Below, one piece after another: positions 16,557-57,981 of a DNA stretch of 60,862 nucleotides; the first letter of the stretch is position 1, and the number at the start of each line of letters is the position of its first letter. Source of the stretch: Bacillus phage vB_BspP_Dartukuta; the sequence record MW749009.1. One strand, written 5' to 3'. The notes below the pieces were generated by a model. That model was not told where the DNA came from. It made no database searches and worked only from the letters and a program-made list of their open reading frames with translations. Both the position numbers and the translations under genes were made by a program.

Positions 16557-16585
16557 GCCCACCAGCGCTGGTATCAAATCAGCGC

Positions 16586-17242
16586 ATGAGCAAGAGCACA
16601 CCACCAAACACGACAACAAAACCTAAAGCCGGCGCAAAGTCGGCTCAAAGTCGTGCCCGTACTAAAAATACGCAAGGTAAGACTTCAGCGAGTCAGGCAG
16701 ATTTTAAGCAGGAGCGCGCATTAACGCCCAAACAAGCCGCTTTTGTGCGTGAGTATCTAATTGACCTGAATGGTACGCAGGCTGCTATTCGTGCTGGTTA
16801 CAGTGAAAGGACGGCTAATGAGCAGGCCGCACGCCTGTTAGCAAATGTTAGTGTCAGCAAGGCAGTTGCTGATGCTCAAGCTGAGCGAGCAGATAGATTG
16901 GAAATCACAGCAGACCGCGTTCTTGCTGAGCTTGCAAAGATAGGCTTTGCAGATATGCGCGATGTTGCCAGTTGGGGCGAAACTGTTGTTGATGAAGATG
17001 GAAAGCCGATACATGGCGTTAAGCTCGTCAGCTCAGACAAACTTACAGACAGTGCCGCTGCAGCAATATCTGAGATTGCTGAAACCCCGGCAGGATTGCG
17101 TATCAAGTTGCATGACAAGCGAGCAGCACTGGTTGATATGGGTAAGCACTTGGGTATGTTCACCGAAAAGATAGAGCACAGCGGTGCAATCCAGGTGCAA
17201 AGCACTGTCACTTTCGTTATGCCAAAGCATAGCGAGGACTGA
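16586..17242 (+). CDS. Terminase small subunit
   Basis: ORF track 16481..17242 begins on TTG; ATG at 16586. Motif LTPKQAAFVREYLIDLNGTQAAIRAGYSERTANEQAARLLANVSV is typical of phage small-terminase proteins. Confidence 0.75.
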   Translation: MSKSTPPNTTTKPKAGAKSAQSRARTKNTQGKTSASQADFKQERALTPKQAAFVREYLIDLNGTQAAIRAGYSERTANEQAARLLANVSVSKAVADAQAERADRLEITADRVLAELAKIGFADMRDVASWGETVVDEDGKPIHGVKLVSSDKLTDSAAAAISEIAETPAGLRIKLHDKRAALVDMGKHLGMFTEKIEHSGAIQVQSTVTFVMPKHSED

Positions 17243-17244
17243 TT

Positions 17245-18516
17245 ATGCAGATCAGCTTAAACCTGCAGATACCGCACAAGCTCGCACCGCTTTACGAGCC
17301 GAAGCGATACAAAGTTATGCACGGTGGTCGTGGTGGTGGTAAGTCGCATTCTGTGGCTCAGGTGCTGCTTGACCTTGGTGCTCGGCAGCAGCTGCGTATC
17401 TTGTGTGCGCGTGAAATCCAGAAGTCAATGCGTGACTCAGTTCACCGCTTGCTCAAGGACTACATCATCAAGCTCGGGTTGACTGCATTTTATGAGATTA
17501 CTGATACCGAAATACGCGGCGTAAATGGCACGCTGTTCTTGTTCGCTGGCCTACAGGCGCACACAGTTGACTCAATCAAGTCATTCGAGGGTGTTGATAT
17601 TGTCTGGGTTGAAGAGGCGCACAGTGTTAGTAAGAAGTCGTGGGACGTACTAACACCGACCATTCGTAAAGAAGGTAGCGAAATATGGATGACGCTAAAC
17701 CCTGACATGGAGACGGACGAAACTTACGTTAGGTTTGTTGCTGCTGGCACCACTTCTGATACATGGGTTGCGGAAATCAACTGGCGCGATAACCCGTGGT
17801 TCCCAGTCGTACTGAATGAAGAGCGCAAGAAAGCCAAGCGCGAAATGAGTGCTGAAGACTACGAGCATATTTGGGAAGGAAAGGCGCGCACAGTTGCAGC
17901 CGGTGCCATATACCGTCACGAAATCATTGAGCTTGTTGCAGGTAAGCGGTTGCAGCGCATTCCGTATGACCCGCTTATGCCTGTTCACACTGTTTGGGAT
18001 TTAGGTTGGAACGACAGCATGACAATCCTGTTCGCGCAGAAAGGCCCAGCTGATATACGCATCATTGATTACATAGAGGAAAGCCATCGGACATTGGATT
18101 GGTACGTTCAACAGATAGAAAAAAGGCCATACAGATGGGGAGTTGACTATATCCCGCACGATGGGCGGACTAAAAACTTTCAAACAGGAAAAAGCACTGA
18201 AGAGCTGTTAAGGCAGATGGGCAGAAATCCTTTTGTACTCGCAGCAACTGGCATTGAAGAGGGCATTAAGGCAGTACGCATGATGTTTCCGCGCTGCTAC
18301 TTCGATGAAGACAAAACAAAACGGTTGGTTGAGTGTTTAAAGCGCTACAGCAGGCGCATACATGAAAAAACAGGCGAGCCAATGGGCCCATTGCATGATG
18401 AATACTCGCACGGCGCGGACGTGTTTAGATATTTAGGGCAAGCAGTGGAGTTGATGCGCAATGACATTGGACATACAGACTATCAAGAAGCACCCGCTGT
18501 GGACTGGCGCTTGTGA
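17245..18516 (+). CDS. Terminase large subunit (PBSX-type)
   Basis: Walker A HGGRGGGKSHSVAQ near the N-terminus, ...IVWVEEAHSVSKKSWDVLTPTIR... ATPase core; directly downstream of TerS. Confidence 0.9.
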   Translation: MQISLNLQIPHKLAPLYEPKRYKVMHGGRGGGKSHSVAQVLLDLGARQQLRILCAREIQKSMRDSVHRLLKDYIIKLGLTAFYEITDTEIRGVNGTLFLFAGLQAHTVDSIKSFEGVDIVWVEEAHSVSKKSWDVLTPTIRKEGSEIWMTLNPDMETDETYVRFVAAGTTSDTWVAEINWRDNPWFPVVLNEERKKAKREMSAEDYEHIWEGKARTVAAGAIYRHEIIELVAGKRLQRIPYDPLMPVHTVWDLGWNDSMTILFAQKGPADIRIIDYIEESHRTLDWYVQQIEKRPYRWGVDYIPHDGRTKNFQTGKSTEELLRQMGRNPFVLAATGIEEGIKAVRMMFPRCYFDEDKTKRLVECLKRYSRRIHEKTGEPMGPLHDEYSHGADVFRYLGQAVELMRNDIGHTDYQEAPAVDWRL

Positions 18517-18526
18517 GGACTAGACC

Positions 18527-56886: not shown

Positions 56887-56998
56887 TGCTTACTGAAGCG
56901 GTTTACTCACTGGCATGGCTCTGTGAGAAATGCTCTGAAAACCTTAGAGTTCAGACTTGAGTTGAGCTCTAAGGCTAAAGCGAACAGCATTTGTTTGC

Positions 56999-57820
56999 TT
57001 ATTGAATTGAAGAAACGCACTGGCCTTTGATGTAAACGAATAGTGATCGACCGTCATTTAAGCTGTACACCCATTGCTCTGTGCCGACTATCAGCGAGTT
57101 AACTGATGATGGGGAGCCAATAGCGCTTCGCACCTCGCTACTGGTCATACCTTGCCATATTTCTTTTTGGCCTATTCTCACTATTCCTCGTTTGGGCTTT
57201 CGAGCAGTGCAAGCTTCGCGGCTACCATCTTGTGGGCGCGGGTCATTCATCTTGTTCTCGATTTGCTTGAGTCGTCTGTCGAGAGGGCTCTGGTTAGGAT
57301 TGTAATGCACTTCGCGATCATTTATTTCAGGAAGAGCATAATCAGGCTGGGAAGAAGTTGTCGCCCTTGGTGATGAAGTTAGGCCAACTTCTCTGGCTTC
57401 ACGGCGCAGGCGAACAGCGCGAGCTGCTTGGCTTTCGCGGCTTGAATCGTGAACTACCGTCACACCGCTAGGGTTTTCCTTACGTTTCCTGGCTATAGCT
57501 TCTTCCTTTTCCCGCAAGCGGCGGTTGATTAGGCCGCCAAGGGTAGAAGGGTCTTCTGCACGAGGATCTGGCACGACAGTGACCTTCATTGTTGAGCTAG
57601 AAGGATTGCTGCGAGCATATTCAATTTCTCTGACCTGCTCTGGAGTCGCGAATGTTCCTATCTGATTGGTTTGAGTGTTAACTATCTCGGACACACCTTC
57701 AGGTGTTGTACAAGGCACGTTTGCGAAGCTCACTTTTCCGTCAGGGCTTATGCACTTATAGACTTGACTATAGGCGAGTACTGGGGTCATAAAAACAGCA
57801 AGCATGACGTAATTCCACAT
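56999..57820 (-). CDS. Secreted protein with DUF4124-like N-terminal domain (~274 aa)
   Basis: ORF track 56999..57868; ATG at 57820 with AGGAG upstream; signal peptide MWNYVMLAVFMTPVLAYS then QVYKCISPDGKVSFANVPC; Ser/Arg-rich middle. Confidence 0.5.
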   Translation of the reverse strand: MWNYVMLAVFMTPVLAYSQVYKCISPDGKVSFANVPCTTPEGVSEIVNTQTNQIGTFATPEQVREIEYARSNPSSSTMKVTVVPDPRAEDPSTLGGLINRRLREKEEAIARKRKENPSGVTVVHDSSRESQAARAVRLRREAREVGLTSSPRATTSSQPDYALPEINDREVHYNPNQSPLDRRLKQIENKMNDPRPQDGSREACTARKPKRGIVRIGQKEIWQGMTSSEVRSAIGSPSSVNSLIVGTEQWVYSLNDGRSLFVYIKGQCVSSIQ

Positions 57821-57908
57821 AGCATTTCTCCTGAAAATTCCTTGTGTTGTTTTATAAGCTGCAAGCAAAAAACCTAATATATCAAAGCATCCGGCAGATT
57901 ACCTTAGT

Positions 57909-57931
57909 GCCACCCTGTAGAGTTTCACACG
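57909..57931 (+). promoter_or_regulatory. Conserved late motif, copy 4 (GCCACCCTGTAGAGTTTCACACG)
   Basis: ~50 bp upstream of the holin ATG; followed by a 9-bp inverted repeat (57936..57944 / 57970..57978) that includes the GGAAG ribosome-binding site. Confidence 0.4.
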
Positions 57932-57981
57932 CCATGTAACTTCCTAAAGAATACCCAAAAACGGTATTTGGAAGTTACGTT

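Follow-up and report, generated by a model that had tools for sequence, protein, structure and literature searches.

Repeats at three late-gene starts

The subject of this analysis is a set of three inverted repeats at the starts of late genes in Bacillus phage vB_BspP_Dartukuta (sequence record MW749009.1), the 60,862 nt of which were examined as a whole and are referred to below as the window. Open reading frame (ORF) calls and family searches describe the window as a temperate, lambdoid-organised podophage or prophage, kin of Pseudomonas phage F116 (Hollowayvirus). It specifies an integrase, a RecT/YqaJ module, NinB and RusA; after these come TerS, TerL, the portal and the major capsid protein, and further downstream are genes for a 631-aa protein, a 662-aa protein and a 4203-aa polyvalent protein, with the holin (57982) and endolysin (58283) genes last. 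The terminase and portal DNA is about 68% identical to that of F116-like phages. Megablast searches of the packaging region against a phage collection and E. coli genomes gave no matches, and relatives were recovered solely by distant blastn and protein searches. The three genes concerned, and the repeats at their starts, are as follows (SD, Shine-Dalgarno sequence; TSS, transcription start site; the -10 element is described in the next section).

16586..17242, + strand: terS, 218 aa (phrog_51, E 1e-45), with no SD
40614..42596, + strand: 662-aa late gene (phrog_11341)
57982..58293, + strand: holin gene, 103 aa (phrog_1350 and phrog_20), protein sequence MSDDVK...
16565-16570 / 16580-16585, + strand: site 1 repeat, GCGCTG / CAGCGC, arms 9 nt apart and flanking the -10; its last base directly precedes the terS ATG
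40563-40571 / 40596-40604, + strand: site 2 repeat, TCCGTAGCA / TGCTACGGA, 9 bp, with the -10 and the predicted TSS in its loop
57934-57944 / 57970-57980, + strand: site 3 outer stem, (AT)GTAACTTCC / GGAAGTTAC(GT), core arms 57936-57944 / 57970-57978
57950-57955 / 57963-57968, + strand: site 3 inner stem, AATACC / GGTATT, with the predicted TSS in its apical loop

A sequence-only reading of this DNA had proposed that these repeats would sequester the ribosome-binding site or start codon of each gene and, together with a motif shared by the three loci, form a common post-transcriptional control. The repeats are all present at the positions it claimed. The first was said to abut the terS ATG and does so, ending directly before the ATG at 16586, but there is no recognisable ribosome-binding site for it to sequester at this gene. 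At the 662-aa gene, the 3' arm does meet GGAG, at 40602-40605, in a stem of 9 bp that is one pair longer than had been read; the likelier start of this gene is the ATG at 40614, 8 nt past GGAG, the ATG at 40608 being just 2 nt past it. At the holin gene, the 3' arm contains the SD GGAAG (57970-57974), again as proposed. RNA folding, which the same reading had suggested as a check, was carried out, and all three sites fold better than dinucleotide shuffles, with local energies of -14.8, -24.9 and -22.3 kcal/mol at sites 1, 2 and 3 (z -3.2, -3.5 and -4.5). None of the three hairpins is called as an intrinsic terminator, their tails (AUGAGCAA, AGUCAUGG and UAUGUCUG) having no U-tract, and Rfam 15 has no match at the three sites at gathering score; its matches in the window (C4 antisense RNA, isrK, c4-a1b1 and tRNA) lie elsewhere.

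Late promoters and their candidate activator

The shared motif CACCCTGTAGRRTT is, on sequence grounds, an activator box that forms the upstream half of a sigma70-type late promoter. Instances were anchored at the box centre, CCCTG·TAG (the point marks the centre), with +1 assigned to the T, and positions with a plus sign below are in these coordinates. The box consensus is CCCCCTG·TAGGG, a quasi-palindrome of only 4+4 bp, and its core (C-5 C-4 C-3 T-2 G-1 T+1 A+2) is invariant in 29 instances. Among 40 non-redundant instances, a TTGACA-like hexamer (TnGACa) peaks at +7..+12, with a mean of 3.28 of 6 matches against a background of about 1.4, and a weak -10 of the form nAnAnT with A2/T6 (e.g., GACACT, CAACAT, AAGAAT) ends at +35/+36 in 37, other offsets giving counts of 0-6. 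The two elements are separated by 17-18 bp, within the 17 +/- 1 bp of sigma70 promoters, and a generic sigma70 scan independently calls the holin promoter (TTCACA-17-AAGAAT, 57924..57952). It is because of these hexamer positions, the spacing and the independent call that the promoters are described as sigma70-type. Transcription is predicted to start at about +42 from the box centre, which would place the box centre some 41.5 bp upstream of the start. The copies in the window, with the candidate activator gene and a neighbouring terminator, are listed below.

16096..16527, + strand: candidate activator, 143 aa, closing the early-right operon behind NinB and RusA, directly upstream of terS
16538..16549, + strand: P_terS box CACCCTG·TAGAG, centre between 16544 and 16545 (+1 = 16545), an exact motif match, identical in relatives L001 and L128
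16551..16579, + strand: P_terS core, -35-like TTTACA (16551-16556), 17-bp spacer, -10-like TCAAAT (16574-16579)
21301-21322 plus T-run, + strand: intrinsic terminator before P_scaf
21346-21357, + strand: P_scaf, a degenerate fourth copy, CCCCCTG·TAGGT (CCCCCTGTAGGTTT), upstream of a scaffold-like gene
40538..40579, + strand: P_662, box CACCCTG·TAGGA (40538-40549), -35-like TCGCAA (40551-40556), -10-like CAACAT (40574-40579), predicted TSS about 40586
57911..57952, + strand: P_holin, box CACCCTG·TAGAG (57911-57922), -35 TTCACA (57924-57929), 17-bp spacer, -10 AAGAAT (57947-57952)

At P_terS, TGGTATCAA can also be read as an extended -10, and the predicted TSS (16584-16586) falls at the A of the terS ATG. 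P_scaf has the -35 TTGAAT and the -10 AACACT (21382-21387), with a predicted TSS at about 21394, and P_holin, the box, -35 and -10 of which are identical in relative L057, has its predicted TSS at about 57959. Matches to the position weight matrix (PWM) of the promoter all fall on the late-gene strand (55/55). F116 carries the motif at the same four orthologous places (terS, scaffold-like gene, 662-aa homolog and holin), and it also occurs in P. stutzeri phage 8P (five copies), Shewanella phage Y11 and about 15 IMG/VR contigs, as well as in Pseudomonas, Acinetobacter, Psychrobacter, Curvibacter and Moraxellaceae prophages that were found via the protein encoded just upstream of terS. The P_662 box in particular recurs at the orthologous site in F116, 8P and about 15 IMG/VR loci. 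Scans of IMG/VR by endolysin or terS returned mostly unrelated phage types without the motif, and nothing relevant was found in the literature on F116 late promoters, F116 start sites or the motif string.

Two further observations concern the motif and its surroundings. The window has 8 copies of the string CCCTGTAG where 1.04 would be expected, and four of these (24888 +, 15417 -, 38327 - and 56564 -) are internal to coding sequence, are not near gene starts and do not reach the PWM threshold set for the promoter. The P_662 activator box also forms one side of an 11-nt inverted repeat at 40523-40551 (AATCCTGCAGG / CCTGTAGGATT, 91% complementarity), the other side being sequence just upstream of the box; this repeat could represent a second half-site of the operator or, in read-through RNA, a stem.

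The probable activator of the late promoters is the 143-aa winged-helix protein whose gene stands directly before terS, a role suggested by its position and its co-occurrence with the box. Homologs of this protein are 143-170 aa long, and for this reason its true start was taken to be an internal Met of a 172-aa ORF. An AlphaFold model (pLDDT 81) consists of a winged helix-turn-helix (HTH), a small beta domain and a long C-terminal helix, and its first 62 aa can be superposed on the winged HTH of DtxR/IdeR with an rmsd of 1.3 A. The protein belongs to phrog_8117, annotated as 'unknown function', and is kept upstream of terS in F116-like phages; the motif occurs within 1.5 kb downstream in 16 of 31 prophage loci found with it. 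At this genome position, the usual late switch is lambda-type Q antitermination at PR'/qut. The regulator gene likewise occupies the Q position, after NinB/RusA and directly before the packaging genes, but the Pfam search found no Q-family match for it, only weak HTH matches. The arrangement also differs from that of lambda in having four promoter copies rather than one promoter with a read-through terminator, and terminators that precede the promoters instead of following them.

Class II activator-dependent sigma70 promoters include those of CRP and FNR, with the activator at -41.5, and lambda PRM with cI, from which the cI mRNA is produced in leaderless form. The predicted phage promoters resemble this class in the distance of about 41.5 bp between the box centre and the predicted start, in a degenerate -35 that directly adjoins the box and in a weak -10, but the winged-helix family of phrog_8117 has no sequence relation to CRP or cI, and the box is only a 4+4 bp quasi-palindrome. 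The likeness to PRM extends to terS, the AUG of which would coincide with the first transcribed nucleotide, as does that of cI. The A of the terS ATG lies at +42 in the window, L001 and L097, at +43 in F116, L023, L024, L029, L049 and L052, and at +44 in 8P, and an SD is absent in all ten of these loci. Since the start codon coincides with the predicted transcription start in ten loci without an SD, this suggests that terS is translated from a leaderless mRNA, and the fixed position of the ATG in turn lends independent support to the start-site assignment. The annotated terS start of F116 (L002), at 22851, is probably 74 nt too far downstream, as there is an in-frame ATG at 22777, +43 from the box.

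Pairing of the arms and the RNA that could form it

When the repeats are placed in box coordinates, their arms fall as follows.

terS: 5' arm +21..+26, 3' arm +36..+41
662-aa gene: 5' arm +19..+27, 3' arm +52..+60
holin gene: 5' arm +19..+27 (inner +33..+38), 3' arm +53..+61

All three 5' arms lie within the spacer between -35 and -10, upstream of the predicted start, and at terS both arms are upstream. RNA that begins at the late promoter would therefore be unable to form the hairpins, and only RNA reading through from upstream could do so. The predicted consequences for translation were calculated by comparing the two kinds of transcript. The probability that SD and AUG are unpaired rises from 0.23 in read-through RNA to 0.54 in RNA from the predicted TSS at the 662-aa gene (+0.31), and from 0.17 to 0.52 at the holin gene (+0.35); the gain in accessibility with a start at the predicted TSS is 0.19-0.20, against 0.065 in 41 control genes (p = 2e-4 to 9e-4). 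The predicted holin transcript (57959-58010) is essentially unstructured (-4.8 kcal/mol, z +1.2) and in the predicted 662 transcript from 40586 the GGAG is free, while the RNA entering from upstream is strongly structured (z -5.4 and -4.8). In that RNA, the 3' arm covers the SD at the 662-aa and holin genes and merely abuts the ATG at terS. Of the common control envisaged by the sequence-only reading, then, the conserved hairpins stand, with the SD buried at two of the three sites, but their placement in the 5' untranslated region (UTR) of the late mRNA is not supported. Nor is its suggestion of an effect on lysis timing borne out for the holin gene of the window, where the 5' arm sits in the predicted promoter spacer and the predicted late RNA is unstructured.

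Were transcription instead to begin just past the motif, for instance near +13 with TAGRGT serving as the -10, the late mRNAs would include the hairpins, which could then throttle or time the synthesis of TerS, the 662-aa protein and the holin, or stabilise the RNA at its 5' end. T+1, A+2 and T+6/7 of the motif do fit TAnnnT, many stems begin at +9..+13 as a 5'-terminal stem-loop would, and the holin hairpins of F116, 8P and L126 are near the SD even when they lie downstream of +42. Lambda S is a precedent for a hairpin at a holin start that affects lysis timing. This account is nevertheless judged distinctly unlikely: there is no conserved -35 partner at -23..-18, no explanation is offered for the nAnAnT at +30..+35, for the TTGACA-like hexamer that precedes it by exactly 17 bp or for the fixed SD-less terS ATG at +42..+44 in ten loci, and the holin has no dual start. 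For the lack of a -35 partner, and because the +30..+35 element and the terS distance would go unexplained, the motif itself was set aside as a -10. In lambda S, the sdi stem-loop and a dual start (Met-Lys-Met) control holin and antiholin. A stem-loop at the phage holin start could similarly influence holin synthesis and lysis timing, but this holin begins MSDDVK from a single ATG with no dual-start motif, and the late transcript is predicted to lack the 5' arm.

Whether the pairing is more than fortuitous was assessed by a spacer-only shuffle, in which the 17-nt promoter spacer, which holds the 5' arm, was permuted and all else kept fixed. The resulting z-scores are -3.95 at terS, -3.6 at the 662-aa gene and -4.3 at the holin gene, with p at the floor of 0.003 for all three. 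Of the 40 non-redundant promoters, 15 have a spacer that complements sequence further downstream at z <= -3, and 20 have one that does so at p < 0.05, all three window sites included. This shuffle is blind where the 5' arm overlies the -10, as in the Acinetobacter clade, which was judged by covariation.

A comparison with orthologous phages for covariation had also been suggested, and hairpins do recur beside the motif with unrelated stem sequences and compensatory changes. Stems at 662-type sites measure 14 bp in L008 and 12 bp in L012, that of L007 (GGGGCTCC/GGGAGCCCC) lies over its SD, and the stems of F116 and 8P are long and imperfect, with a loop that contains the -10; the site-2 hairpins of these five are unrelated in sequence. 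An RNAalifold consensus of eight 662-type sites has a stem around the -10, with compensatory change in 6 of 12 pairs. The terS repeats comprise five stem sequences (GCGCTG/CAGCGC in the window; CCCGGA/TCCGGG in F116, L023 and L024; TGCCGC/GCGGCA in L029; GCCCCG/CGGGGC in L049; GCCCGA/TCGGGGC in L097), all of them bracketing the -10 and ending 0-2 nt before the ATG. Acinetobacter prophages have a 15-bp terS hairpin, the 5' arm of which (+28..+42) ends exactly at the predicted start and the 3' arm of which spans SD through AUG. Its inner stem AAACC/GGTTT is replaced by ATGCT/AGCAT in L033, so that four pairs are changed on both sides, a result reached in 0 of 500 shuffles, and 90% of cells in this hairpin are paired, where slid controls give 29-48%. 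L057, the closest holin relative, has kept all 18 stem bases and differs just 5' of the core stem (+13..+18); the substitutions at the stem base (A-U to G-C and U.G to C-G) extend the stem over the AUG. By the spacer complementarity, the unrelated stems at one position, the compensatory changes and the strand bias described below, the hairpin pairing is under selection.

It is barely credible, in this light, that these are ordinary intergenic hairpins without function. Such a view could appeal to raw fold energies that are merely within the top 1.6-5% of the window's 50-nt windows, to occlusion within the range of ordinary genes, and to the absence of the terS repeat from the closest relatives. 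It does not account for the spacer-shuffle p floor, reached at all three window sites and in 19 of 47 instances, for hairpins at orthologous positions with unrelated sequences, or for the compensatory substitutions.

A role at the level of DNA, in which repeats around the -10 affect melting, the response to supercoiling or protein binding, might be considered because the repeats bracket the -10 so regularly, with the 5' arm ending at +26/+27 at all three window sites, and because the terS repeats are GC-rich and lie in the discriminator. Stem sequences differ between sites of one genome, however, which leaves no common protein site, and cruciforms form poorly from stems of 6-9 bp when the loops measure 9-25 nt. 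The strand bias of the stems also tells against it: 30 G.U pairs are present, and in 19 hairpins the sense strand folds better than the antisense in 12 and worse in 3 (mean -3.1 kcal/mol, p = 0.011), which would be unexpected for a DNA duplex, so this explanation is regarded as very improbable. The G.U pairs and the sense-strand advantage point to pairing in sense-strand RNA, and, given the position of the 5' arm, that RNA must start upstream of the promoter.

Transcription entering from upstream appears to be handled differently at the fourth copy. P_scaf follows the intrinsic terminator listed above, and no hairpin was found at this promoter (fold z +0.4, spacer shuffle z -0.9); the orthologous sites in F116 and Y11 likewise come after terminators and are without hairpins. 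A spacer hairpin is present in none of the six terminator-preceded copies (window 21346, F116 p42, three in Y11, and L049) against 15 of the 34 others. No + strand terminator was found between the regulator gene and terS, or between the genes for the 631-aa and 662-aa proteins. Hairpin and terminator look like alternative ways to handle incoming transcription.

In Pseudomonas-type relatives, a hairpin that encloses the 662-type -10 is followed by a U-rich tract (L002 45756-45800, L004 about 5118-5165, L009 about 4423-4470), the tails being CAGGCCGTTTCTATT / GTTTCTATT in F116 (L002), GTTTCTCATT in L004 and GTTTATATC in L009. These U-tailed hairpins resemble an intrinsic terminator of the upstream operon with the next promoter nested inside.

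The hairpins might accordingly act on read-through RNA through transcription or stability, as weak terminators overlapping the promoter, RNase III sites or protectors of the 3' end of the upstream mRNA, the overlap with the SD being incidental. The U-rich tract after Pseudomonas-type site-2 stems, which carry the -10 in the loop, fits such a role, as do the mutual exclusion of hairpins and canonical upstream terminators, the 3' arms that lie off the SD in L012, 8P_p022 and F116_p58, and the 18-23 bp stems of the window holin, 8P_p022 and L008, which are near the size of RNase III substrates. The window hairpins, on the other hand, are without U-tracts and are not called terminators, the 3' arm coincides with SD and AUG in the window, L007, L057, L121 and the Acinetobacter clade, and both the Acinetobacter compensatory changes and the base changes in L057 preserve or extend that overlap. 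This reading, with the overlap incidental, is rated unlikely, although a role in transcription, processing or stability is a serious rival or companion function.

A proposed fold-back of read-through RNA and late gene control

The reading favoured here, at a probability of about one half, is that the hairpins insulate the late units by an IS10-style fold-back inhibition of read-through RNA and are not a throttle on the late mRNA. RNA begun at a late promoter would lack the 5' arm and leave SD and AUG open, or, at terS, would be leaderless. Read-through RNA would hold both arms, and its hairpin would bury the SD of the 662-aa and holin genes; at terS, it would be stacked directly against an internal AUG that has no SD, a double block. 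Such RNA could enter terS from the early-right operon, the 662-aa gene from the structural operon and the holin gene from the operon of the polyvalent protein (PolyVal), and the first gene of each late unit would be translated solely from RNA of its own activator-dependent promoter. The analysis itself establishes the repeats and their significance, the geometry of the promoters, the conserved structure and the pairing on the sense strand; we infer the existence of read-through RNA, the transcription starts, the identity of the activator and the effect on translation. The broader proposal, that a phrog_8117 activator, promoters with the CCCCCTGTAGGG box, a leaderless terS and a fold-back arm in the spacer jointly run late transcription in F116-like phages, is put forward as tentative, a possibility somewhat short of even.

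Several points weigh against fold-back insulation. The whole argument hangs on the assignment of the -10, and the transcription starts are predicted. The unpaired probabilities of SD and AUG in read-through RNA (0.23 at the 662-aa gene and 0.17 at the holin gene) are within the range of ordinary genes, though at its low edge: for 41 other gene starts the value is 0.44 +/- 0.15, with a minimum of 0.16. L001 and L128, the closest relatives, have no terS repeat, nor do 8P and L052, so it must be dispensable; the close Logan relatives of the regulator (L128, L129) indicate that it is not kept within the window's own lineage. As the 3' arm falls short of the SD in L012, 8P_p022 and F116_p58, selection must act on something besides translational occlusion. 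In F116, 8P and L126, hairpins at the holin site are partly or wholly downstream of the predicted start, and may have a genuine 5'-UTR effect on holin translation. The association between terminators and missing hairpins reaches only p = 0.067 in a Fisher test, and many of the promoter instances share ancestry, which leaves the counts used in the statistics less than fully independent.

The closest parallel is found in insertion sequences. In IS10, an inverted repeat straddles the element's own transcription start, so that transcripts from outside fold and bury the ribosome-binding site, while those from its own promoter, which start within the structure, can still be translated. This inhibition of read-through transcripts by fold-back, in IS10/Tn10 (and IS50), was reportedly described by Davis, Simons and Kleckner in 1985. 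The phage repeats would be alike in straddling their own predicted start, such that only outside transcripts could fold over the ribosome-binding site. They differ in standing at the first gene of late operons and not at a transposase gene, in having the 5' arm within the -35/-10 spacer of an activator-dependent promoter, with several such promoters per genome, and in the combination, at terS, of a fold-back arm with a predicted leaderless start. Insulation by a fold-back arm embedded in a promoter is known from IS elements; to our knowledge, no such case has been described among phage late genes.

One more protein was considered in connection with the late SDs. A 64-aa protein of the structural module (25862-26056, + strand) matches phrog_8397, 'CsrA-like regulator' (E 8e-21), with counterparts in F116 p47 and 8P_011, and the homolog in phage 8P carries its own late promoter copy. 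CsrA binds GGA in SD regions, and a late-expressed GGA-binding protein of this type could affect translation from the GGA-containing late SDs. As a link to the hairpins it was dropped, there being no Pfam CsrA match and no PDB sequence match.

Other features of the window lie outside the late promoters. The 4203-aa polyvalent protein (42617-55228, + strand) contains ddrB-ParB, InPase, LPD5, LPD1, LPD23, GNAT, ART-PolyVal and LPD38 domains, and comparable giant proteins occur in relatives (e.g., 5145 aa in phage 8P). Rfam matches at 56223-56407 (- strand) to the C4 antisense RNA (72.7 bits), isrK and the c4 a1/b1 target element lie directly upstream of a P22-Ant-like antirepressor gene (PF10547; 55302-56183, - strand), and C4 RNA with antirepressor constitutes a P1/P7-type immI antirepressor control module, here within an F116-like phage. 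Downstream of the lysis genes, near the right end (59445-60542, - strand), is a gene for a 365-aa TnpB-like protein with OrfB_IS605 and Cas12f1-like TNB domains. In the early region are a tRNA-Arg(TCT) gene (9883-9959, - strand) and, at 5914-7518 (- strand), a gene for a 534-aa protein with an N-terminal YqaJ-like recombination exonuclease domain and a C-terminal T7 gp5.9-like RecBCD-inhibitor domain (PF25708, residues 492-529).

F116-like temperate phages are widespread in Pseudomonas, Acinetobacter, Shewanella and relatives, and the F116/Hollowayvirus-like group includes generalized transducers as well as common prophages of P. aeruginosa and Acinetobacter. If fold-back insulation is correct, their packaging, ejection-protein and lysis genes would be translated from activator-started RNA alone and never from read-through. 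It could be speculated that this serves as a fail-safe in lysogens against leaky synthesis of holin and terminase, and that it uncouples the yield of ejection proteins from the strongly transcribed capsid operon upstream. The promoter spacer, usually deemed free sequence, would carry an RNA arm by which transcripts of different origin are distinguished, an arrangement with a possible use in the design of compact, terminator-free insulators for synthetic operons. For the group itself, this would be the first working model of late gene control, and it supplies a candidate activator, a promoter consensus for annotation and a corrected terS start for F116.

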